Of a DNA stretch of 64,000 nucleotides, positions 1,460-61,647 are shown one piece after another; position 1 is the first letter of the stretch, and every line of letters starts with the position of its first letter. Origin of the DNA: a bacterium (lineage in GTDB: Bacteria; Patescibacteriota; Minisyncoccia; Phycocordibacterales; UBA12079); NCBI GenBank assembly GCA_018401295.1, contig JAGYLJ010000002.1:26727-90726 (forward strand). Reading direction: 5' to 3'. A program made the translations under genes and the position numbers. The notes beneath the pieces are model-generated. The model ran no database searches, had not been told where the DNA came from, and saw nothing but the letters and a program-made list of their open reading frames with translations.

Positions 1460-4400
1460 AAATAATAATTGTTTTAATGGGGATGCTGAGCATCCCCATT
1501 TTTAGTAGTTTTGCTTACGATGATGAGATTACTCATCCTGCTTTGACTCAAGAAATAATTAAATTGTTTGAATCATATTATCCAGAATTTGGATTTAGTG
1601 AGAAAGAGATTAGCCGTATTGAATATGGGAGCCAAGCAGAAGATTCTCCTAATATAAGATGTTTGGCACATTTTTATGATCCTGTTTATGAAACTGGTTT
1701 GTTTGGAAATTTATCAGCCAAACAATGGGCTCTGTCCTCTGTGGCGCAAGGTCTTTTAGATGTTAAATATGATATATTTTTAGCTAATGTCTCTCAGAAT
1801 TTATTTGAATCTGAGACTGATTTTTCTTTTAATAGGGCAGTGTTTGAATATGTGCATGGGTATAAGCTGAGAGGTTTGGAAAGTTTGGGACACACCTTAC
1901 ATCTTCTTGAAGATATGGCCGTGCCTGATCATACAAGGAACGACGACCATGCTTTTGGTTCACCTTATGAGGAATATGCCAAGATGTGGAACAAAGATAA
2001 TATTGATATTGCTGACAACTTGATCGAAAACAGACAAAATCCTGTTGTTTATTCTAATTTAAATGATTATTTTTATAATTTGGCTTTGTTTAGTAATCAA
2101 AACTTTTTTAGCAAGGACACTATTTTTGATAAAAAATATGTAGAGCCGGTTATTGATTATGGAAAAGAAGAAATTTTGAGCGATGGTAGACACTATATCT
2201 TTGGTCATAAGAGGGTTAATAGTAACAAATTAATTAGAATAAAAAGAGAACGTGATATAAATAGCGGTGAGGTATATGAAAGATATTATCTTGATGATAT
2301 TGACAACCTAATCTTCACCGACTACTGGAACACTCTTTCTAAACAAGCTGTATTATACGGAGCAGGAGTTATCAAATTATTTTTTGATGCTGTAGAAGAA
2401 GAGAAGCAAACCCTAGCTTTGTATAAGAAAAATAGGAGTGGTTTTGATGTCGTTGTGGCCGGAGCCACTGATATAGCAAGAAGAATAGCTAAATTGACTT
2501 CAAGTTTGGCGGCGAATGTTAATAGGAGTTTGGGAGGTATCGATAGGCAAGATTTATTAGCAAATATTAGTTCTCAAGAAGAAGATGGTGTAAATGGAGA
2601 GGATTTAGGGGTGGAAATTGTAAGTGAAAGCTTGCAATTTCCACTCCTAAATCCTCCTAGTACCTCTGGTTTAAAACCCGAGGATCCAAATAGTCTTGAA
2701 CTGCAAAGACTCGCTTTAATTTTAAAAGAAGCACAAAAGTTAGTTAATCGCTTAGAAGAAAATATCGGCAATATTCGTGATCAAAACGTCGGAGGCGCTG
2801 GTGATGAAGACCTAATTACTGGTGAAAATGGTAATAATGGGAGTGAGGAAACAGGAAATAAAAATCACCCGGTAATCCAATTACCAAGTGATTTGGTGGG
2901 AAGTAATAATAATTATGGCGGGGGAGGAAGTGGTGGTGGCGGAGTCACCACCATCTCCTCGCCGTCAGTATCGGCAAGCACAGCAAGCGTCACGGTTGCC
3001 ACAACAACCCCCACAGAAACAGCCACCACCACTACCTCTACTGTGACAATTAACCCCCCTATTATAATTTCTCCTTTTAATTTCTCTAGATTTGCTACCA
3101 CTACAATAACTTTTTCGGGAACTGCTTCTTCAACTCAAATTATTTCAACAGATTTTTCCAGTGCCACCACAACTGTTGATCAAAATAACGATTGGGAATT
3201 AAATCTTTCTAATTTTTCACAAGGTACAACCACTTTGGCGTTTTTTGCTAATGACGGCCAAAATACTTCAAGTTCAACTGAAATTGAAATTTTTGTTAAC
3301 TCTACTGCCACAACAACTCCTCTTGTTACCATTGATGCTCCATCTTTAGAGATTAACCAGTGTGATAATTCAATTTCATCATCTTCTTGTTTAATTACTA
3401 CTACAACCCTAGATATCCAGTGGGCGACTAGTTCTCCCTGTACCGATTTTTCTCATTTTAATATTGAAAGTGATGGTGTTTTTTCAACCACCGTTGCCAC
3501 CAGCACTCGGATTACCAATTTAAACGACAATTCTAATTATACTTTTTCGGTGGCGGTGGTTGATATCAATGGAAACGCCTCTGCCACCACCACTCAAATG
3601 GCAATAGTAAGTATTTTACCAGTTGTTATTAATGAAATTGCTTGGGCGGGGACAGATGCTTCCAGTGCTGATGAATGGATTGAACTTTATAATCGTAGTA
3701 ATCGAGATATTGATCTAACAGATTGGGTTCTATATGCAGAAGATTTCTCCCCTGTGATTTCTTTTTCTGAAGCCTCAGACAAAATTATTGAAGCTAGGAG
3801 TTATTATTTGATTGAAAGAACTGATGATACGACCATCAGCGATATTTCTGCTGATTTTACAGCGCCTTTTAGTGGTTGGACAAGTAGTTCGGGCTTATCT
3901 AATAATGGTGAAAATCTTATTTTAGCTTATAAAAAAACTAATCAAGCCACCACGACAGTAGACGAAATCCTTTTTGGAAGTGGTTGGCCCACAGGAGATA
4001 ATTATAGGACATTAGAAAAGTACGATCCAGATTTACCGGGGTCAGAAACAGGGAATTGGGCTTTGTCTATTGGGAAATACATTTTGAATGGTCATGATAG
4101 TAGTGGGGTGACTACAATAAAAGGAACACCAAAAGCTAGAAATAGTATTAATTATAAAATTGCGAAGGAAGATTCTTTGGCTAAAGACAAAATAATTACA
4201 AAAACCAATTCGCCATATTTTGTTGGGATTGACGGGTTAACCATTCAAAGTGGAGTAGTTTTAACCATTGAAGAGGGAGTTATTATTAAATCTGTCCGAT
4301 ACAACAACGCGGATATAATAGTTAATGGTTCTATTCATGCGAACGGCTCAGATAGTGAACCAATTATTTTCACTGCTTTTTCTGATGACATAAATGGAGA

Positions 4401-54636: not shown

Positions 54637-55449
54637 TTAAAATGGACTTTTAATTTTCTTAATGGCTGGATTCATAGCATGAGTATAAATTTGGGTTGTT
54701 CTGATGTTAGCATGTCCTAATAATTCTTGCACATATCTAACATCAACTCCGTTTTCTAATAAATGGGTAGCAAAACTGTGTCGCAAAGAATGAAATGTTG
54801 CGTCTTTTTTTATTCCTGATTTTCGTAAGGCATTTTTAAAAACTTTTTGAGCGGTTCGTTCGGTTAATTTTCCACCTCGCTCACTAGTAAAAAAATAATC
54901 ATTGGAATTTTTATTAGCTATTGATTTTTCAACATCTATTATTAACTTTTCCGGAAAAACCGTAATTCTATCTTTATTTCCTTTAGCTCCTTTAATATGA
55001 ATAATTAGTTCCGCTAAATTTATATCTTTAATTTTCAAATTGATAATTTCACTCACGCGCAAACCTCCAGAATATGCTAAAACTATCATTAATTTATGTT
55101 TCTCATTGGAAATCTCCGACAATATTTTCTGAATTTCATCTCGAGACAAAATAATCGGCAATTTATTAGGAGTTTTCGCAAAATGAATATCAATTTTTCC
55201 TTTATATTTCAAAACATTCCAACAAAAAAAATTTATCGCTTGCAAATTTTGATTAGTAGTTTGTGATGACTTCCCTGCATTAATTTTAGAAAGTATATAT
55301 TGCTTAATAAAATTAACATCCACAATTTCAAAATTACTTCTTTTAGCTTTCAGATAATTTTCAACACAAACTGTATATGCTTTTATGGTTTTAGGGCTGT
55401 ATTTTCTCAACTTTAATTCATCTTCTAATTTTTTCAAATAGACGTCCAT
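54637..55449 (-). CDS. Tyrosine recombinase / integrase (XerC/D-like with SAM-like N-domain)
   Basis: R (GLRVSE), HSLRHSFATH, LLGHANIRTTQIYTH; C-terminal ...KIKSPF. Confidence 0.88.
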   Translation of the reverse strand: MDVYLKKLEDELKLRKYSPKTIKAYTVCVENYLKAKRSNFEIVDVNFIKQYILSKINAGKSSQTTNQNLQAINFFCWNVLKYKGKIDIHFAKTPNKLPIILSRDEIQKILSEISNEKHKLMIVLAYSGGLRVSEIINLKIKDINLAELIIHIKGAKGNKDRITVFPEKLIIDVEKSIANKNSNDYFFTSERGGKLTERTAQKVFKNALRKSGIKKDATFHSLRHSFATHLLENGVDVRYVQELLGHANIRTTQIYTHAMNPAIKKIKSPF

Positions 55450-55687: not shown

Positions 55688-56140
55688 CTACTTGTCGACG
55701 GCAATGAGTTCGGCCGGAACAAAAGACCATGTTCCAAGATCTATATACGCATCAACAAGAACAATTTTCTTGCCCTCCCATTCGTATATCTTGCCGATAT
55801 CGTTACACTCACTTGCCGATTTCAAGCAATCAGGGATTGGCTGGCATGAGCTATCATAGCCATCACTGAATGTAAGAATCGGCCAATGAGATGGGATAGC
55901 ACCATATTCGACTAGGTGCCAATCTCCCGGTCCGAATTGATTGTTGTAAGATTCCGCTTCCTGCGCTTTCTTTATCAAAACTGATAACGGAATCGGCCCC
56001 GCCTGCTGTTCGTTTGAAAAGTACTCAGGAAACCGCTCGACTACCATTCGACCAAGGTCAGTGGCAAGGTTAAGCAGTGCCAGCGCCCACATAAAATGGG
56101 TGTCCGTAATCTGGCAAATCGCCTTCCAGTTCTTGTACAT
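55688..56140 (-). CDS. Orphan 150-aa protein of foreign-looking composition
   Basis: ORF track. RBS AAAGGAGG; upstream TTGACA-17-TTAAAT. Much higher G+C by eye than all neighbouring genes. Confidence 0.7.
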   Translation of the reverse strand: MYKNWKAICQITDTHFMWALALLNLATDLGRMVVERFPEYFSNEQQAGPIPLSVLIKKAQEAESYNNQFGPGDWHLVEYGAIPSHWPILTFSDGYDSSCQPIPDCLKSASECNDIGKIYEWEGKKIVLVDAYIDLGTWSFVPAELIAVDK

Positions 56141-56669: not shown

Positions 56670-58097
56670 ATGAACAAAAAAATCCTAATTTCAATCATTA
56701 TAATTTTAATCCTTACTGCAGGTATTGGTGTATTTTTTGTTTTTCAAAAATCTGTTTTTATTGAAGAAAGTGGTATAACTCCACCAGTAGTTGATTATGA
56801 TGATTCTCCTTTTGGTATAATGGCTGCATTTGACTCTACTACATTGGTTCATATTAATACTCCAAATAAGCTTCAGTGGGCTGGTGAACAGTTTCAAAAT
56901 TTAGGGGCAAAGTTTACAAGAGGTGGTGCCATTAATTTAATCTGGGATGACATTGAACCTGTTCTGGGTCAAGGTTATTATTGGGCTTCTTCTGATGAAT
57001 ACTTAAAATCAATTTATCAATATGGTGGAGATAATGTTGATTATATTCCAGTTATTACTTCATGTAGAGGTAAACAGGTTTCGTGTGATTTGAGTAAGGA
57101 AAATGAGACTTATTTTAGGAACTATGTTAATGCTTTAGTTGAAAGATATGATGGTGATGGGATTGATGATTATAGTCCAATTATAAAAGTCAAATACTGG
57201 CAAGCATATAATGAACCATTTCCCCGAAATTGGGTTGATAGGAGAGGAGGGACAATAAAGGGTTTTGCTAGATTTGTTGAAATTTTATCTAATGCCGTTA
57301 GAGGGGCAGACAATGAGGCTAAAATTATTCTTGGTGCATGTGGGTTAGAAGAAAAGGAATATGTAAAAGAGTTTGATAAAGTAATCACAGAGATGAAAGG
57401 AAAAAATCTTTTTGATTATGTAGATACTCATTATTGGAATCAAGAAAACTATAAAATTAGTAATGTAGATCTTGCAAGAAATATTTTGGATAAGAATGGT
57501 TATTCTAATGCAAAGTTTGTTTCATTGGAATTTGCTTCTTGGAGAGGGCATAGGAATACTGAATATAATGTGGCCAAATATTTAATTAAGGGGTATTTAT
57601 ATAATATTGCCAATGGTTTTTCTTTTATAAACTGGAATAACCTTGTTGAATGGGAGAATTTTGGGGGATATGAAAATAGTCTTTATAATTCAATGGGATT
57701 AATCGCTGATGGAATTAATGATGATGATATTTCAGCCGGGACTTTATTATTGCCATATTATTCTTACAAACTAATGGTTGAAAAACTTGAAGGCTCTGAT
57801 TGGGATAACATCCAAACAATTCAAGAATCAAATGATGTTTATATTTACAAATTTACAAATAAAGAAACTGGAAAATCAACGTGGGTTGCTTGGAATGATA
57901 ATGCGAATTTACAAACAATTACTTTAAACGTCAGAGATATTAAGTCTGTAAAACTCATCGAAGCGGTTCCGAAATATGAAACCGGAAAAGAAATATTAGA
58001 TTACAGTACAGCTTTCAATATAGAAACTAAAAATGTAAACAATAATCAAGTTTCTATAACTTTGGAAGATGTACCAATATTTGTGTTAGGAGATTAA
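56670..58097 (+). CDS. Membrane-anchored glycoside hydrolase, clan GH-A TIM-barrel-like
   Basis: 475 aa; N-terminal TM helix; YWQAYNEP (NEP acid/base motif). Confidence 0.75.
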   Translation: MNKKILISIIIILILTAGIGVFFVFQKSVFIEESGITPPVVDYDDSPFGIMAAFDSTTLVHINTPNKLQWAGEQFQNLGAKFTRGGAINLIWDDIEPVLGQGYYWASSDEYLKSIYQYGGDNVDYIPVITSCRGKQVSCDLSKENETYFRNYVNALVERYDGDGIDDYSPIIKVKYWQAYNEPFPRNWVDRRGGTIKGFARFVEILSNAVRGADNEAKIILGACGLEEKEYVKEFDKVITEMKGKNLFDYVDTHYWNQENYKISNVDLARNILDKNGYSNAKFVSLEFASWRGHRNTEYNVAKYLIKGYLYNIANGFSFINWNNLVEWENFGGYENSLYNSMGLIADGINDDDISAGTLLLPYYSYKLMVEKLEGSDWDNIQTIQESNDVYIYKFTNKETGKSTWVAWNDNANLQTITLNVRDIKSVKLIEAVPKYETGKEILDYSTAFNIETKNVNNNQVSITLEDVPIFVLGD

Positions 58098-58320: not shown

Positions 58321-58518
58321 CGGACAGGCGCTCCATTTTGCATAATGTCCACGCTTAGCAGCGCTGTTCTGCTCAGCAAAGCTTCGCATAACAGCTGCTT
58401 ATCCTAAATTTCTATCGAAAAGAAATCTTTTCTCCAGAAACTTCGGATCAAGCGCGGACATTACATTCAATTGACTCGCCTAAGAAAAATTTATACAAAT
58501 TATACAATTAATAAAAAT

Positions 58519-58941
58519 ATGAATTGGAAAGAATTTTTAAAGCCAAATTTACAAAAATTAAAAGAGACAATCTTATTTGTTTTTCTATTTTATATTTTGA
58601 TTAGTATATTTTTTTTCTTAGGTTCTGGTGTTATAGATGGGGATTGGGCTGTAGACAAATTCTATGTTGAACATCTTTCTCAACTTACAACGTCAGAAGC
58701 AGATTGTGAACGATTACCATCCGGTGTTACTTGGGACTGTCCAGGAGGTGAATTTGACTTCCAAATTATTTTAACTTGGATACTAATATTATTAACAGCT
58801 TATATTGTGAGTTGTTATAAAACACTTTTATTAGTTCAAATACCCAATAGCAAGAAAAAAATTATTTATCGTCTATTAGGAATTTGTATAGGTATTGGAT
58901 TTGTTCTCTTCTTGATAGTAATTTGGGCTATAAATAATTAA
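58519..58941 (+). CDS. Hypothetical membrane protein
   Basis: Start MNWKEF at 58519 (track ORF from 58471); 3 hydrophobic helices. Confidence 0.55.
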   Translation: MNWKEFLKPNLQKLKETILFVFLFYILISIFFFLGSGVIDGDWAVDKFYVEHLSQLTTSEADCERLPSGVTWDCPGGEFDFQIILTWILILLTAYIVSCYKTLLLVQIPNSKKKIIYRLLGICIGIGFVLFLIVIWAINN

Positions 58942-59106
58942 AACTGATTCTTTTTCTTGATATGCAAAAACCTAAACCAAACCTTGCGTCATACTGTCGG
59001 TTGCTTTATAGGATTGCCACATAACAGTGATTATTTGTGATTTTCCTGCCGAAAATTCCCGAACTCTGCTACACAGAACTTCAGATAATTCCGATGTTAA
59101 AAAGTG

Positions 59107-59190
59107 CGGTGGATACAGGACTCGAACCTGTAAGGGCTTTCACCCGACGCATTTCGAATGCGCTGCCTTACCAATTCGGCGCAATCCACC
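59107..59190 (-). tRNA. tRNA-Ser (CGA)
   Basis: Hand-folded: acceptor GGTGGAT/ATCCACC, discriminator G, anticodon loop TTCGAAA, long variable arm GGGTGAAAGCCC, T-arm ACAGGTTCGAGTCCTGT. Confidence 0.88.
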
Positions 59191-59260
59191 GTTTCATGTC
59201 TATAAATCTACCATTTTTTTGCTTTTTTGACAAAAATTGATATAATTTTTGCAGTGTTAT

Positions 59261-59332
59261 GGCCCTATCGTCTAACGGTTAGGACATCGGCTTTTCAAGC
59301 CGGCAATCCGGGTTCGATTCCCGGTAGGGTCA
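59261..59332 (+). tRNA. tRNA-Glu (UUC)
   Basis: GGCCCTATCGTCTAACGGTTAGGAC...; anticodon loop TTTTCAA; T-arm CCGGGTTCGATTCCCGG. Confidence 0.9.
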
Positions 59333-59436
59333 CAAAACGTTAAGAAAAAGTAAACCGCTTTACTTTTTTGGTTTTGTGGAGGCGGAGCGATGTTTTTGCT
59401 TCCACCCAGAAGCAAAAACCGCGAGCCGTGGATAAA

Positions 59437-59520
59437 AAACAAACTGCTTTGTTTTTTATCCGGTTTTTGCACAGCAAAAAATTTCCTTTATTGAGCAAAG
59501 CGAAATAGGAAATAGGCGGG
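59437..59520 (+). repeat. Three-hairpin module, copy A (105 nt downstream of tRNA-Glu)
   Basis: About 80% identical by eye to 60519-60612, with compensatory stem changes. Confidence 0.75.
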
Positions 59521-59671
59521 TCGACAAGTACTTAGACTTTTAGAATTCGTAAGAATTTTAAAAGACTTAGTAACTTGTGACCACGTAAAATCTGCGTGCG
59601 TAGCATTCCATATAACTTAACCAAAAAACCAAAGCATTAGTTTTGGTTTTTTATATTTTAGTAAAGGAACT

Positions 59672-60271
59672 ATGGATAAAAAAACTATAGATACTTACAA
59701 CAAAATGGCTAAAGAATATGACGAGGAAACAATCGGTTTTTGGAAAGAATTTCCTGATACCATTATTACTAAATTTTGCGAGAAAATGGAGGGAGATAAA
59801 AAAGTGTTAGACATTGGAAGTGGTCCTGGCCGAGATGGACTTTTATTGAAAGAAAGGGGATTAGATGTTGTTTGTTTAGATGCTTCATCAGAAATGGTAA
59901 AATTATGTGAGAACAAGGGGTTGGATTCAATTGAAGGAGATTTTTTGGATTTGCCTTTTGAAGATAGTACTTTTGATGGGGTTTGGTCATACACTTCTCT
60001 TTTACATGTACAGAAAAAGGAGATGAACAAAGCTTTATCTGAAGTTAGAAGGGTTTTAAAAAAAGACGGTATTTTTGGTTTAGGTTTAATAGAAGGGAAT
60101 AAGGAACTTTATCGTGAAAGTTCTGGGGTTGGAGAATTGAGATGGTTCGCTTTTTATCTCAGAGAAGAAATAGAAAAGTTATTAGAAGATCAGGGCTTTG
60201 TTGTTGAATATTTTGAAGATTTTACACCTAGTTCAAAAAAATATTTGAATTATATTTTGAGAAAAATTTAA
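59672..60271 (+). CDS. Class I SAM-dependent methyltransferase
   Basis: VLDIGSGPGRD motif I. Confidence 0.85.
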   Translation: MDKKTIDTYNKMAKEYDEETIGFWKEFPDTIITKFCEKMEGDKKVLDIGSGPGRDGLLLKERGLDVVCLDASSEMVKLCENKGLDSIEGDFLDLPFEDSTFDGVWSYTSLLHVQKKEMNKALSEVRRVLKKDGIFGLGLIEGNKELYRESSGVGELRWFAFYLREEIEKLLEDQGFVVEYFEDFTPSSKKYLNYILRKI

Positions 60272-60334
60272 AAATAAAGATAAAATATTGTTTGGAATTG
60301 GAGGATAAGATGGGTTATAATTAAATTAAATAAG

Positions 60335-60407
60335 GGGCGGTTAGCTCAGTTGGTAGAGCGCTACATTGACGTTGTAGATGTCACAGGTTCGAATCCTGTA
60401 TCGCCCA
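60335..60407 (+). tRNA. tRNA-Val (GAC)
   Basis: GGGCGGTTAGCTCAGTTGGTAGAGC...; anticodon loop TTGACGT; T-arm ACAGGTTCGAATCCTGT. Confidence 0.9.
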
Positions 60408-60427
60408 CAAATTTGAGACGAAGTGAA

Positions 60428-60900
60428 AAATTGGTGGGCGATAAGTAAGCCAATTGCTTGGCTTACGTCAGGATTCGAAAGTCGGAATATATTGCGAGCG
60501 ATAGCGAGTAATAATGAGACGGGGATAAAAAACAAACTACTTTGTTTTTTATCCGATTTTTCTGAAAGAGAAAATTTCTTATATCGAGCGAAGCGAGATA
60601 GGAAATAGGAGGACGCGAACACTTAATAGATTTCGAGCGAAGCGAAGAAATCTATTTAGTGATTTGTGATCGAATCCTGACTGGTTTATATTTGCCCACA
60701 AAATCTTAAGTCCTAAAGCGTTAGCTTTGAGACTTTTGATTTTGTCGTGACGATACAGGGTTCGAACCGAGCGAATATATTTTTCTGTAGCGAAGCGAAA
60801 GAAAAATTTGAGAGAGCGGAGGTCAAGGGATTGAGATATTTTTGGAGCGAAGCGAACAAAAATATCCATGAGAGTGACCGAATCCTATTTCCACCCCACC
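60428..60900. repeat. Array of degenerate tRNA-Val 3'-end copies in alternating orientation, interleaved with GAGCGAAGCGA-loop hairpins
   Basis: Inverted copies at 60428-60478 and 60738-60770; direct copies at 60661-60700 and 60868-60900. Hairpins at 60574-60606, 60625-60656, 60779-60807 and 60835-60866. Confidence 0.7.
60519..60612 (+). repeat. Three-hairpin module, copy B (112 nt downstream of tRNA-Val)
   Basis: GGATAAAAAACAAACTACTTTGTTTTTTATCC plus two further hairpins, homologous to copy A. Confidence 0.75.
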
Positions 60901-60939
60901 TATTTGCGCAGTTTTCAAGATAAGTTATAATATCTTTAT

Positions 60940-61647
60940 ATGAGATTATTTTTATTCAATAGTATTGGAGAGGAAGAAAAAGCTCAGGCAATTGAGAAAT
61001 TAATAACTCAAAGTACGCCAAGTCAGGATTTCTTTTTCATGATGGCTTTGTCCGTATTAACAGCTGTTTTTGGTATTTTATTAGAAAGTGTAGCTGTTGT
61101 AATTGGAAGTATGTTAATTGCTCCTCTTCTTTCTCCTATTTTAAGTTTATCATTAGGTATAACTATGGCTGATTCCAAATTGATAAGAAGATCGTCCCAA
61201 ACGATTCTTAAATCTGTAATTGTTGGGATTGGAGTCTCAGCAGTAGCAACTCTTCTTTTTGGAGCGGGAAAAATTCCAGAGGTTTTCGTTATTAACCCTA
61301 GTCCAAATTTATTGTCAGTGGCGGTGGCTGTTATAGCTGGTTTTGCTGCAACCTTTGCTTTAGTTAAACACAAGATGAACGAAACTTTGCCAGGGGTGGC
61401 TATTGCTGTGGCTTTAATTCCTCCCATTGCACTTATTGGTATTGGTTTAGCTGAAATGAGTTGGGTTATGATGACAGACGCCCTCATTTTATTTGGATTG
61501 AATATCGTCGGTATTATTTTCGCAGGAATGGTGACATTTTCTTTAATGAATTTTTATACAAAGAAAAAAGTAGCAGAGATTATCGTTATGAAAGAAGATA
61601 AAAAACTAGAAGAAGAGGAACCTAAAGAATTAAAAGAAAATATTTAA
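60940..61647 (+). CDS. DUF389-like polytopic membrane protein
   Basis: VIGSMLIAPLLSPIL motif; family name from memory. Confidence 0.6.
   Translation: MRLFLFNSIGEEEKAQAIEKLITQSTPSQDFFFMMALSVLTAVFGILLESVAVVIGSMLIAPLLSPILSLSLGITMADSKLIRRSSQTILKSVIVGIGVSAVATLLFGAGKIPEVFVINPSPNLLSVAVAVIAGFAATFALVKHKMNETLPGVAIAVALIPPIALIGIGLAEMSWVMMTDALILFGLNIVGIIFAGMVTFSLMNFYTKKKVAEIIVMKEDKKLEEEEPKELKENI

Follow-up and report, generated by a model that had tools for sequence, protein, structure and literature searches.

Pieces of the 3′ end of a tRNA-Val(GAC) gene recur in alternating orientation downstream of that gene in a 64,000-nt stretch of a Patescibacteriota genome (GenBank assembly GCA_018401295.1, contig JAGYLJ010000002.1, positions 26,727 to 90,726; the whole stretch is called the window here, and coordinates count from its first nucleotide). 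A conserved, hairpin-rich non-coding element stands there twice in tandem, and the alternating copies form the two arms of the stem in each. Read on the tRNA strand, each unit of the element consists of a spacer hairpin, an inverted copy of the host-gene 3′ end (X′, often split by a hairpin, H0), a core (P2 and P3) and a direct copy of the same gene end (X2), which begins at T-loop position C56. Units V1 (60409-60703) and V2 (60698-60900) stand in tandem behind tRNA-Val, and a third unit stands behind tRNA-Glu (59334-59620). The strict alternation, which an earlier note made from the sequence alone had pointed out, arises because each inverted copy is the built-in 5′ arm of a unit; it reflects the layout of the units and not separate scar events. 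The features at tRNA-Val are as follows, with their basis in brackets.

60335..60408, + strand: tRNA-Val(GAC), the host gene (ARAGORN; Rfam, 70.6 bits)
60388-60414, + strand: X1, the copied tRNA-Val 3′ segment, from T54 through the trailer
60415..60427, + strand: apical loop GAGACGAAGTGAA of the palindrome made by the tRNA 3′ end and copy (i) (inverted repeat)
60428..60444, + strand: copy (i), acceptor part of X′, complement of ATCGCCCACAAATTT (14 nt, 1 mismatch)
60445..60466, + strand: H0 hairpin GTAAGCCAA-TTGC-TTGGCTTAC, which splits X′ at the acceptor/T-stem junction (sequence, relatives)
60467..60479, + strand: copy (i), T-arm part of X′ (GTCAGGATTCGAA), 5′ strand of the closing helix P1 of V1 (12-bp helix)
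60480..60524, + strand: P2 module of V1, AGTCGGAA..hairpin..GAGACGGGG (covariance model match, covarying pairs)
60523..60606, + strand: three extra hairpins between P2 and P3 of V1 (repeat, fold)
60611..60671, + strand: P3 hairpin of V1, GGAC..CACTTAATAG..loop GAGCGAAGCGA..CTATTTAGTG..GTGATC (covariance model match)
60671..60703, + strand: copy (ii), X2 of V1 from the C56 equivalent, 3′ strand of P1 (fold, alignment)
60698..60745, + strand: spacer hairpin between V1 and V2 (inverted repeat)
60738..60768, + strand: copy (iii), X′ of V2 (inverted repeat; 17/18 to the tRNA)
60779..60807, + strand: hairpin with loop TAGCGAAGCGA, at the P2 position of V2 (fold)
60821..60879, + strand: P3-variant hairpin of V2, GGTCAAGGGATTGAGAT..GAGCGAAGCGA..ATCCATGAGAGTGACC (covariance model match)
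60879..60900, + strand: copy (iv), X2 of V2, decayed, 15/20 (direct repeat)

Across 60409-60939 the only open reading frames (ORFs) of at least 60 aa are 60423-60608 on the + strand and 60341-60622 and 60579-60869 on the - strand, all overlapping the structured units. The consensus of P2 is AGNCGGAG..CGAGN′CGG and that of P3 is GGTCGAGAGTACTTAG..GNA-capped loop..CTTAGTAACTCGTGACC; in relatives, an H0-like module with a ..AAACTGCTTT.. apex commonly splits X′ at the acceptor/T-stem junction.

All four tRNA-Val copies described in the earlier note are present, at slightly refined coordinates (tRNA positions T54 and C56 fall at 60388 and 60390). Inverted copy (i) comprises AAATTGGTGGGCGAT (60428-60442), the hairpin at 60445-60466 and GTCAGGATTCGAA (60467-60479), and matches the tRNA end over 14 nt with one mismatch and over a further 11/11 exactly. 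Direct copy (ii) agrees at 10/10 positions in TCGAATCCTG (60670-60679) and at 9/9 in GCCCACAAA (60694-60702). Inverted copy (iii), at 60751-60768, is complementary to tRNA positions 60386-60403 at 17/18, and direct copy (iv), at 60879-60898, agrees at 15/20 with an exact 8-nt core and is weak taken alone. When the downstream 523 nt (60413-60935) were dinucleotide-shuffled 500 times, the two best inverted-copy scores were never reached (0/500), and the two best direct-copy scores were attained in 2/500 and 1/500 shuffles.

Chance likeness to the ubiquitous, near-palindromic T-loop GGTTCGAATCC was considered as an explanation. TTCGAA equals its own reverse complement, copy (iv) is weak by itself, and the 11-mer TTCGAATCCTG, allowing up to two mismatches, is not enriched in the window (18 matches, 17.6 expected). 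That count means that the signal lies in local clustering and length and not in T-loop likeness. The copies run on through the acceptor strand and the trailer, the inverted copies are out of reach of the shuffles, and 62 units described below show the same layout, each with the sequence of its own tRNA; the shuffles, the arm lengths and these 62 units rule the explanation out, and we leave it practically no probability. Copy (i) can indeed pair with the tRNA's own 3′ end, as had been proposed (duplex of -32.8 kcal/mol), and pairs better with copy (ii) (-40.9 kcal/mol); copy (iii) pairs with the tRNA end at -35.9 kcal/mol and with copy (iv) at -13.6 kcal/mol. The weaker pair reported after tRNA-Glu is real as well, with TCACAAAAC (59330-59338) and GTTTTGTG (59371-59378) placed around a hairpin at 59344-59369.

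On the + strand, 60409-60935 folds at -178 kcal/mol (z -9.5 versus shuffles) and 59334-59668 at -116 kcal/mol (z -9.3); the - strand of the tRNA-Val spacer folds more weakly (-138.8 kcal/mol, z -8.7). The predicted P1 of V1 is a perfect 12-bp helix of 60467-60478 with 60670-60681, plus GUGGGC/GCCCAC, and copy (iii) is predicted to pair either with (iv) or, over 17 bp, with the 3′ end of tRNA-Val itself. A 97-nt repeat links the two spacers (60516-60612 versus 59423-59519, 82% identical, with compensatory changes), and the hairpin cap GAGCGAAGCGA occurs five times, always on the + strand and only in these two spacers (0.16 expected). From the folds and the shared repeats and caps it follows that the alternating pieces are the 5′ and 3′ arms of the closing stems of repeated units. 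V1 and V2 each have an inverted X′ upstream and a direct X2 downstream of the core, both taken from the adjacent upstream gene; the tRNA-Glu unit is of the short-arm form only. The four tRNAs are the sole Rfam matches in the window, and units stand behind two of the four. The features at tRNA-Glu are the following.

59261..59333, + strand: tRNA-Glu(TTC), host gene of the third unit (ARAGORN, Rfam)
59344..59369, + strand: terminator-like spacer hairpin of the unit, a short-arm (type B) palindrome
59380..59431, + strand: P2 module (covariance model, 16.5 bits; fold)
59430..59513, + strand: three inserted hairpins, paralogous to 60523-60606
59519..59582, + strand: P3 core hairpin, GGTCGACAAGTACTTAG..CTTAGTAACTTGTGACC, the motif used for the search for relatives
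59623..59652, + strand: terminator-like hairpin after the unit

A covariance model (CM), R1, was built from 82 units and scanned over the window with filters off; its E-values are rough. It matched five segments.

59478-59604, + strand: 53.5 bits, E 5e-13
60454-60576, + strand: 41.5 bits, E 9e-10
60577-60693, + strand: 35.7 bits, E 3e-8
60774-60901, + strand: the P3 variant of V2, 20.6 bits, E 4e-4
59355-59455, + strand: 16.5 bits

Apart from the reverse strand of one unit hairpin, R1 had no other match below E 0.1 in the 64 kb. The matches in the tRNA-Val spacer identify that region as two members of the family, V1 and V2. V2 is a CCATGAGAG variant, and its P3 variant occurs also in L139 and L143 (L numbers designate the loci and contigs compared).

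In an alignment of 82 units the RNAalifold consensus has 24 pairs. Paired cells amount to 96.9%, compared with 81.6% when partners are shuffled (0/500) and 28-40% in slid-partner controls, and the covariation score is 0.383 against 0.101 in shuffles (0/500). A single consensus pair uses all four Watson-Crick types (CG 29, GC 23, AU 14, UA 9). The consensus also holds an invariant G-U pair, and G-U is commoner than A-C; the structure therefore lies on the host-gene strand. The core structure is under selection, and the units form a covarying, strand-specific family. Searched against Rfam 15, the region 58900-61100 gave nothing plausible besides the tRNAs at E<=10, and 32 related loci gave tRNAs and tmRNA only at E<=1, with no family on the element. 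The element is not described in the literature found on tRNA flanks in the candidate phyla radiation (CPR, Patescibacteria), on MITEs (miniature transposable elements with inverted repeats) at tRNA and tmRNA genes, or under the motif strings; a paper on group I introns in Patescibacteria tRNAs deals with anticodon-loop introns. Relatives showing one conserved structured RNA here had been named in the earlier note as an outcome that would count against scars. The conserved structured element is there, but as a dispersed family and not as one RNA at this locus.

These results bear on the main rival to the reading that we favour below. It holds that the units are a host cis-acting structured RNA, the 3′ trailer of tRNA, tmRNA and ftsZ transcripts, and we consider it unlikely. 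Such a trailer may work as a three-element switch in which X′ pairs either with the upstream gene 3′ end or with X2. In long-arm units X′:X2 would make an acceptor/T-stem-like minihelix for RNase P, RNase Z or the CCA-adding enzyme, and the minihelix would release or stabilise the core RNA, or control 3′-end formation or the decay of read-through transcripts. The covariation and conserved loops speak for it, as do the invariant G-U and the excess of G-U over A-C on the host-gene strand, an orientation that is always that of the host gene, and the greater stability of the + strand folds in both energy and z. V1 keeps P1 through compensatory change relative to the tRNA, the proximal part of P1 is maintained, no terminator was found between tRNA-Val and V1, and occupancy of tRNA genes is high. 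The evidence that tells against this reading comes from the comparison of loci.

The first informative relative was contig L064 of Candidatus Yonathbacteria, where spacer hairpin, inverted copy, hairpin core and direct copy follow a tRNA-Gly gene twice over; its core has GTACTTAG..CTTAGTAAC..TGACC in common with the tRNA-Glu unit of the window. Among the matches listed, it was the only informative one from a loop-pair search (GAGCGAAGCGA N{25,55} GAGCGAAGCGA) of species-representative genomes, which gave at least 120 loci, nearly all unrelated high-GC tandem repeats. The pattern GTACTTAG..CTTAGTAAC..TGACC is found in at least 120 metagenome contigs besides L064, and many of the matching contigs listed come from groundwater and 0.1-µm-filter sets; the attribution to CPR rests on the one named genome and these sample types. 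In viral contigs the strict core pattern and the V2-variant string had 0 matches each, and 10 matches to a loose pattern were set aside as chance because none had a CM match or a tRNA. As a separate observation, GAGCGAAGCGA-capped hairpins with different covarying stems (gtcattgc|GAGCGAAGCGA|agcaatc, gtcatcct|..|aggatc, cttttgc|..|gcaaaag) form short dispersed or tandem repeats in L027, L034, L042, L045, L102, L107, L109 and L119, in Syntrophobacterales, Omnitrophota, Lachnospiraceae, Syntrophorhabdus, Defluviitaleaceae and a Micrarchaeia archaeon; the cap may be a much wider hairpin-cap motif (GNA mini-hairpin).

Among the matches listed, 122 hits were non-identical. A same-strand tRNA gene lies upstream of 79, with 17 isotypes represented and the hit 80-700 nt downstream; the other contexts are tmRNA (6), ftsZ (5), a contig edge (17) and other or unresolved (15). 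The CM found many more units in the fetched loci: at 74/133 of the tRNAs that have room for one downstream, a unit follows within 300 nt, a figure from a biased sample. Host-derived arms are general: in 62 non-redundant tRNA-linked units both flanks copy the 3′ end of that very tRNA, the inverted copy over a median of 12 ungapped nt (26 at most) and the direct one over a median of 14.5 nt (27 at most), extending into the trailer. In the long-arm form X′ extends to T54 and X2 starts at C56 directly after GTGACC; the short-arm form copies just the last few tRNA nucleotides and the trailer. Units linked to ftsZ (L144, L184, L229, L235 and, by CM, L187) lie 89-180 nt past the stop codon, and both of their arms reproduce the last part of the ftsZ coding sequence, one inverted (12-15 nt) and one direct; the direct arm of L144 takes in ~39 nt of the ftsZ end with its stop codon and is out of frame and diverged. 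Whatever gene end stands upstream is therefore what the arms copy. Behind different tRNAs, the P3 hairpins within one subtype share 88-98% identity, an indecisive figure since P3 was the search key and the core-start rule often caught P3 only.

Arms of this kind could also be a mutational by-product. Intra-strand template switching during replication would extend and homogenise the stems of a terminator hairpin and of the core, copying the tRNA end inverted (X′) and then back again in direct orientation (X2). Both the origin and the upkeep of RNA hairpins have been documented as effects of template switching (PMC8794818). The tRNA 3′ end, spacer hairpin and X′ together read as a single long palindrome with the hairpin loop at its centre, arm lengths form a continuum from 5 to 27 nt, and X′ closely tracks X1. 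What template switching leaves unaccounted for is the same core behind dozens of different genes, the position of H0 inside X′, the exact C56 start next to GTGACC in long-arm units and the stop codon within the displaced ftsZ end. We judge it quite improbable as the whole explanation.

Comparison of the tRNA-Val locus in relatives, as the earlier note had advised, revealed turnover. L137, with the same Ser(CGA)/Glu/Val(GAC) order as the window, has no units, and tsaD begins 40 nt past tRNA-Val. L239, again with Ser/Glu/Val order, has 4-5 tandem units after tRNA-Glu, and its tRNA-Val is followed by two units whose core is of another type (GGTGTACAG..CTGTAAGA), each carrying its own inverted copy GGCGATAGAGGAC. 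Tandem arrays are heterogeneous: in L064 the units have an identical 64-nt left part and unrelated cores. In L131 two copies agree at nearly every aligned position over ~330 nt, and both carry a tRNA-like 3′ fragment, at sites without a detectable tRNA. Truncated or decayed remnants occur in L151 and L200.

Several side observations belong to these loci. At least two further core types fill the same frame of inverted and direct arms, GGGGTCGGGGAAC..GTTCCCCGTGGAGGAAA.. and ..GGTGTACAGAATCTGTAAGATTCGA.., the second of which joins the direct copy at T54; they occur in L064 700-880 (-), L174, L239 2700-2850 and 4110-4380, L147, L166 and L192. L200 (reverse strand 3700-4150) has two tandem units whose arms are perfect copies of a tRNA-Glu 3′ end, CGATTCCCCGTAGGGTCAC; upstream of them neither ARAGORN nor Rfam finds a tRNA-Glu, and all that is seen there is a promoter-like TGATATAAT with a 40-nt remnant. 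In L239 (3830-4036) a partial copy of the tRNA-Val 5′ end (GGGCGATTAGCTCGAGTTGG) lies ~170 nt upstream of the real tRNA-Val and is followed by hairpin modules homologous to window positions 60523-60612 (GGATGAAACAGAAAGCAGTTTCTGTTTCATCC .. GAGTGAAGCGA .. GGAAGTAGGAGG), which suggests that entry of these modules is possible on the 5′ side of a tRNA too, with duplication of its 5′ end. Acceptor pair 6:67 of the window tRNA-Val (60340, 60401) is a G6-U67 wobble (5′ GGGCGGT, 3′ ATCGCCC), and this acceptor is fully Watson-Crick in L137 (GGGCGGT/ACCGCCC) and L239 (GGGCGAT/ATCGCCC); the wobble, a single position, would fit a replaced 3′ end. A 28-nt direct repeat (71%), AAGATRRGTTATAAT.., with a -10-like TATAAT, sits just upstream of tRNA-Val (60307-60334) and again right after V2, before a DUF389 gene (60917-60944); it may be a duplicated promoter or a plain local promoter consensus.

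X2 decays. Wherever X1 and X2 disagree at positions 56-66 of 31 units, X′ agrees with X1 in 36 cases, with X2 in 10 and with neither in 5; X′ thus resembles the tRNA more than the downstream copy, which marks X2 as the decaying one. Its first 7-8 nt are usually retained despite decay elsewhere. The assembly of the source sample in Logan (SRR14300308) breaks at 59433, 60408 and 60622, inside these repeats: contigs L001 and L002 map to 59433-60408 and from 60622 onward, and its contigs end exactly at the tRNA-Val 3′ end and within repeated hairpin modules. The elements therefore fragment short-read assemblies.

For the trailer RNA set out above, these comparisons are awkward. At the same tRNA genes, syntenic loci lack units or have a different type of core; L151 and L200 hold decayed and truncated copies; and X2 often decays past its first 7-8 nt. 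A terminator-like hairpin precedes most units and should limit transcription. Arms of 18-27 nt arising anew for each gene by point mutation are implausible, and the short-arm and ftsZ units are not tRNA-like, so that tRNA mimicry is not a general principle.

Serial partial tRNA 3′ ends had been read in the earlier note as scars of integrase-mediated insertion and excision. The direct copies do look like att duplications: they start inside the T-loop (C56), often pass the tRNA end into the trailer, are serial in tandem arrays and tend to decay downstream, and with (ii) and (iv) direct repeats of the tRNA 3′ end bracket an insert. Such duplications are seen also at tmRNA and at the ftsZ 3′ end, both classic types of integration site. 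That part of the idea stands; the inverted copies and the conserved core fall outside it. No integrase gene, island cargo or remnant of either was found between the copies or next to them; CM matches span nearly all of the stretch, and each ~200-290 nt interval is instead a member of the covarying structured family. The same architecture recurs in 120 loci without integrases.

A tyrosine recombinase gene is present in the window (54637-55449, 270 aa, adjoining tsaD), and the scar reading in full would have it drive successive prophage or island insertions and excisions at tRNA-Val. Its product is XerA/XerC/D-like (NF040815, 221.8 bits); against the integron-integrase model it scores 213 bits, below the cut-off of 265, and aligns to IntI profiles in two separate stretches, which suggests that the IntI-specific middle segment is absent. 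The enzyme, whose binding to these sequences the earlier note had proposed to test, is Xer-type and unlinked, 5 kb off and beyond other genes and two other tRNAs, and a role for it here is not supported. The scar reading is thus largely refuted by what lies between and around the copies, and we hold it very improbable. As a side observation, the segment 54637-58941, from tsaD to the 3′ side of tRNA-Ser(CGA), holds this recombinase and three ORFs (55688-56140, 56670-58097 and 58471-58941) with no Pfam or NCBIfam match. It could be a small island, though one without a tRNA-Ser-end repeat: a copy of the tRNA-Ser 3′ end marking a recombinase-bounded island was searched for and not found.

The reading that we favour, with a probability that we put a little above even, is that the units are small non-coding, non-autonomous insertion modules that duplicate the 3′ end of their host gene and fold through the inverted copy. 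How they would move we infer from their architecture. A module would enter by recombination inside the host-gene 3′ end in a form already carrying a replacement 3′ end (Campbell-type), so that the gene would stay intact and the displaced end become X2. Re-insertion into the regenerated site (accretion) would build arrays that read direct, inverted, direct, inverted, direct. X′ would let a single strand, RNA or single-stranded DNA, fold so that the stem X′:X mimics the duplex target and closes the core, and a circle X-spacer-X′-core integrating through X would give the order X, X′, X. The enzyme would have to act in trans. The GNA-type caps (GAA, GTA or GCA closed by C-G) match the very stable d(GCGNAGC) DNA mini-hairpin motif, a resemblance that leaves a single-stranded DNA form possible. 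Template switching at hairpins (PMC8794818) may contribute to the acquisition of arms.

A bolder version is offered tentatively, since we think it rather less probable than its negation: the units may be a previously undescribed class of CPR element whose folded core retargets itself by copying a host gene end in both orientations. The core would then spread among highly expressed genes (tRNA, tmRNA, ftsZ), at their 3′ ends, through a small single-stranded dumbbell or circular intermediate (X-spacer-X′-core), with no element-encoded sequence-specific recombinase.

A number of points weigh against insertion modules. No free or excised form was seen among the loci compared. When the ORFs of at least 90 aa from 120 loci were clustered, no recurrent transposase, integrase, reverse transcriptase, HUH or RAYT-like family appeared; the recurrent neighbours are housekeeping families, including FtsZ and others whose N-terminal sequences alone lead us to take them for MiaA, thioredoxin reductase, ClpB, IF-2 and FtsA. 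One core with more than 20 arm sets is hard to reconcile with a sequence-specific recombinase, and the reading does not account for the re-templating of X′ and X at a new host gene. The invariance of P3 is overstated, as the comparative sample was chosen by exact match to one hairpin. Covariation, conserved unpaired nucleotides, the invariant G-U and strict co-orientation fit a selected RNA equally well. In V1 the partner with which X′ co-varies is X2, not the tRNA (GTCAGG/CCTGAC versus tRNA CCTGTA), and the first 7-8 bp of P1 are kept though the rest of X2 decays; both point to selection on the fold. Finally, with units behind about half of the tRNAs, the load is high for a parasite whose host genome is reduced.

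Known systems share parts of this design. Integrative elements reportedly target the 3′ ends of tRNA, tmRNA or protein genes, with Campbell-type att duplication and T-loop sublocation. The units resemble them in the direct repeat of the host 3′ end from the T-loop past the gene end, in a replacement copy that keeps the gene intact while the displaced copy decays, in their site types (tRNA, tmRNA, protein-gene 3′ end) and in tandem arrays, but the insert is only ~150-290 nt without integrase or cargo, and one core goes with many att-like sequences and an extra inverted att-like copy. The attP(+) site of CTX phage and the attC site of integrons are folded single-stranded att sites in which the stem of an inverted repeat mimics a duplex recombination site. 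By analogy the units may be likened to these folded sites: integration of a circle X-spacer-X′-loop would give the linear order X, X′, X as here, structure is conserved above stem sequence, and integron cassettes also form tandem arrays. In silico, the (i):(ii) duplex supplies an inverted repeat able to fold as a stem that would mimic a duplex target. The stems of CTX and attC sites have fixed recombinase-binding sequences (dif, R/L boxes), however, whereas the stem here copies the local host gene.

Cis-mobilizable elements (CIMEs), reviewed with the site-specific accretion of integrated elements in PMC5704250, are likewise non-autonomous and att-flanked, use an enzyme in trans and by accretion form tandem arrays at gene 3′ ends. 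They differ from the units in being kilobase-sized deletion derivatives of integrative and conjugative or integrative and mobilizable elements, with one att specificity and no conserved folded core. Correia, ERIC, BOX, RUP and RPE are small structured MITE-like repeats of bacteria (PMC2229807); like these and the REP/BIME repeats, the units are short, non-coding, hairpin-forming, dispersed, co-transcribed and modular. MITE-like repeats have constant terminal repeats and short fixed target duplications, whereas the arms here are host-derived and 5-27 nt or longer, and a MITE with family-constant terminal inverted repeats and a fixed target duplication was rejected because the arms vary with the host gene and the duplicated segment ranges from ~5 to at least 27 nt. 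BIMEs alternate the orientation of whole units, whereas all units here are co-oriented and only the arms alternate. A REP/BIME array was rejected: all five GAGCGAAGCGA-capped hairpins and the CM matches lie on one strand, and no RAYT-like ORF cluster was found.

ROOL, GOLLD, mascRNA and the tRNA-like domain of tmRNA also lie beside tRNA genes or are processed by tRNA enzymes, and the closing helix here, acceptor/T-stem-like, could recruit RNase P or RNase Z; unlike these RNAs, the units have no Rfam match, and their helix copies the neighbouring gene and is not tRNA-like in ftsZ and short-arm units. Three further identities were rejected: a retroviral-type primer-binding site, since X′ pairs with the trailer and not with CCA; an IS110 bridge RNA, in which the two guides address adjacent halves and lack complementarity to each other; and a hammerhead or hairpin ribozyme core, whose conserved catalytic strings the units lack.

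With the covariance model and the arm rule, the question can be tested directly on existing metagenomes and metatranscriptomes. If about every second tRNA gene in a major bacterial radiation truly has a unit behind it, the units would be a large unannotated feature of CPR genomes, breaking short-read assemblies and confusing the annotation of tRNA flanks and genomic islands. If they are mobile, a tiny non-coding element would gain new target specificity by copying its host, which would bear on the evolution of integration sites and on the design of programmable insertion. As host RNAs, they would amount to a new 3′-end device common to tRNA, tmRNA and ftsZ transcripts, in organisms with stripped-down RNA processing.

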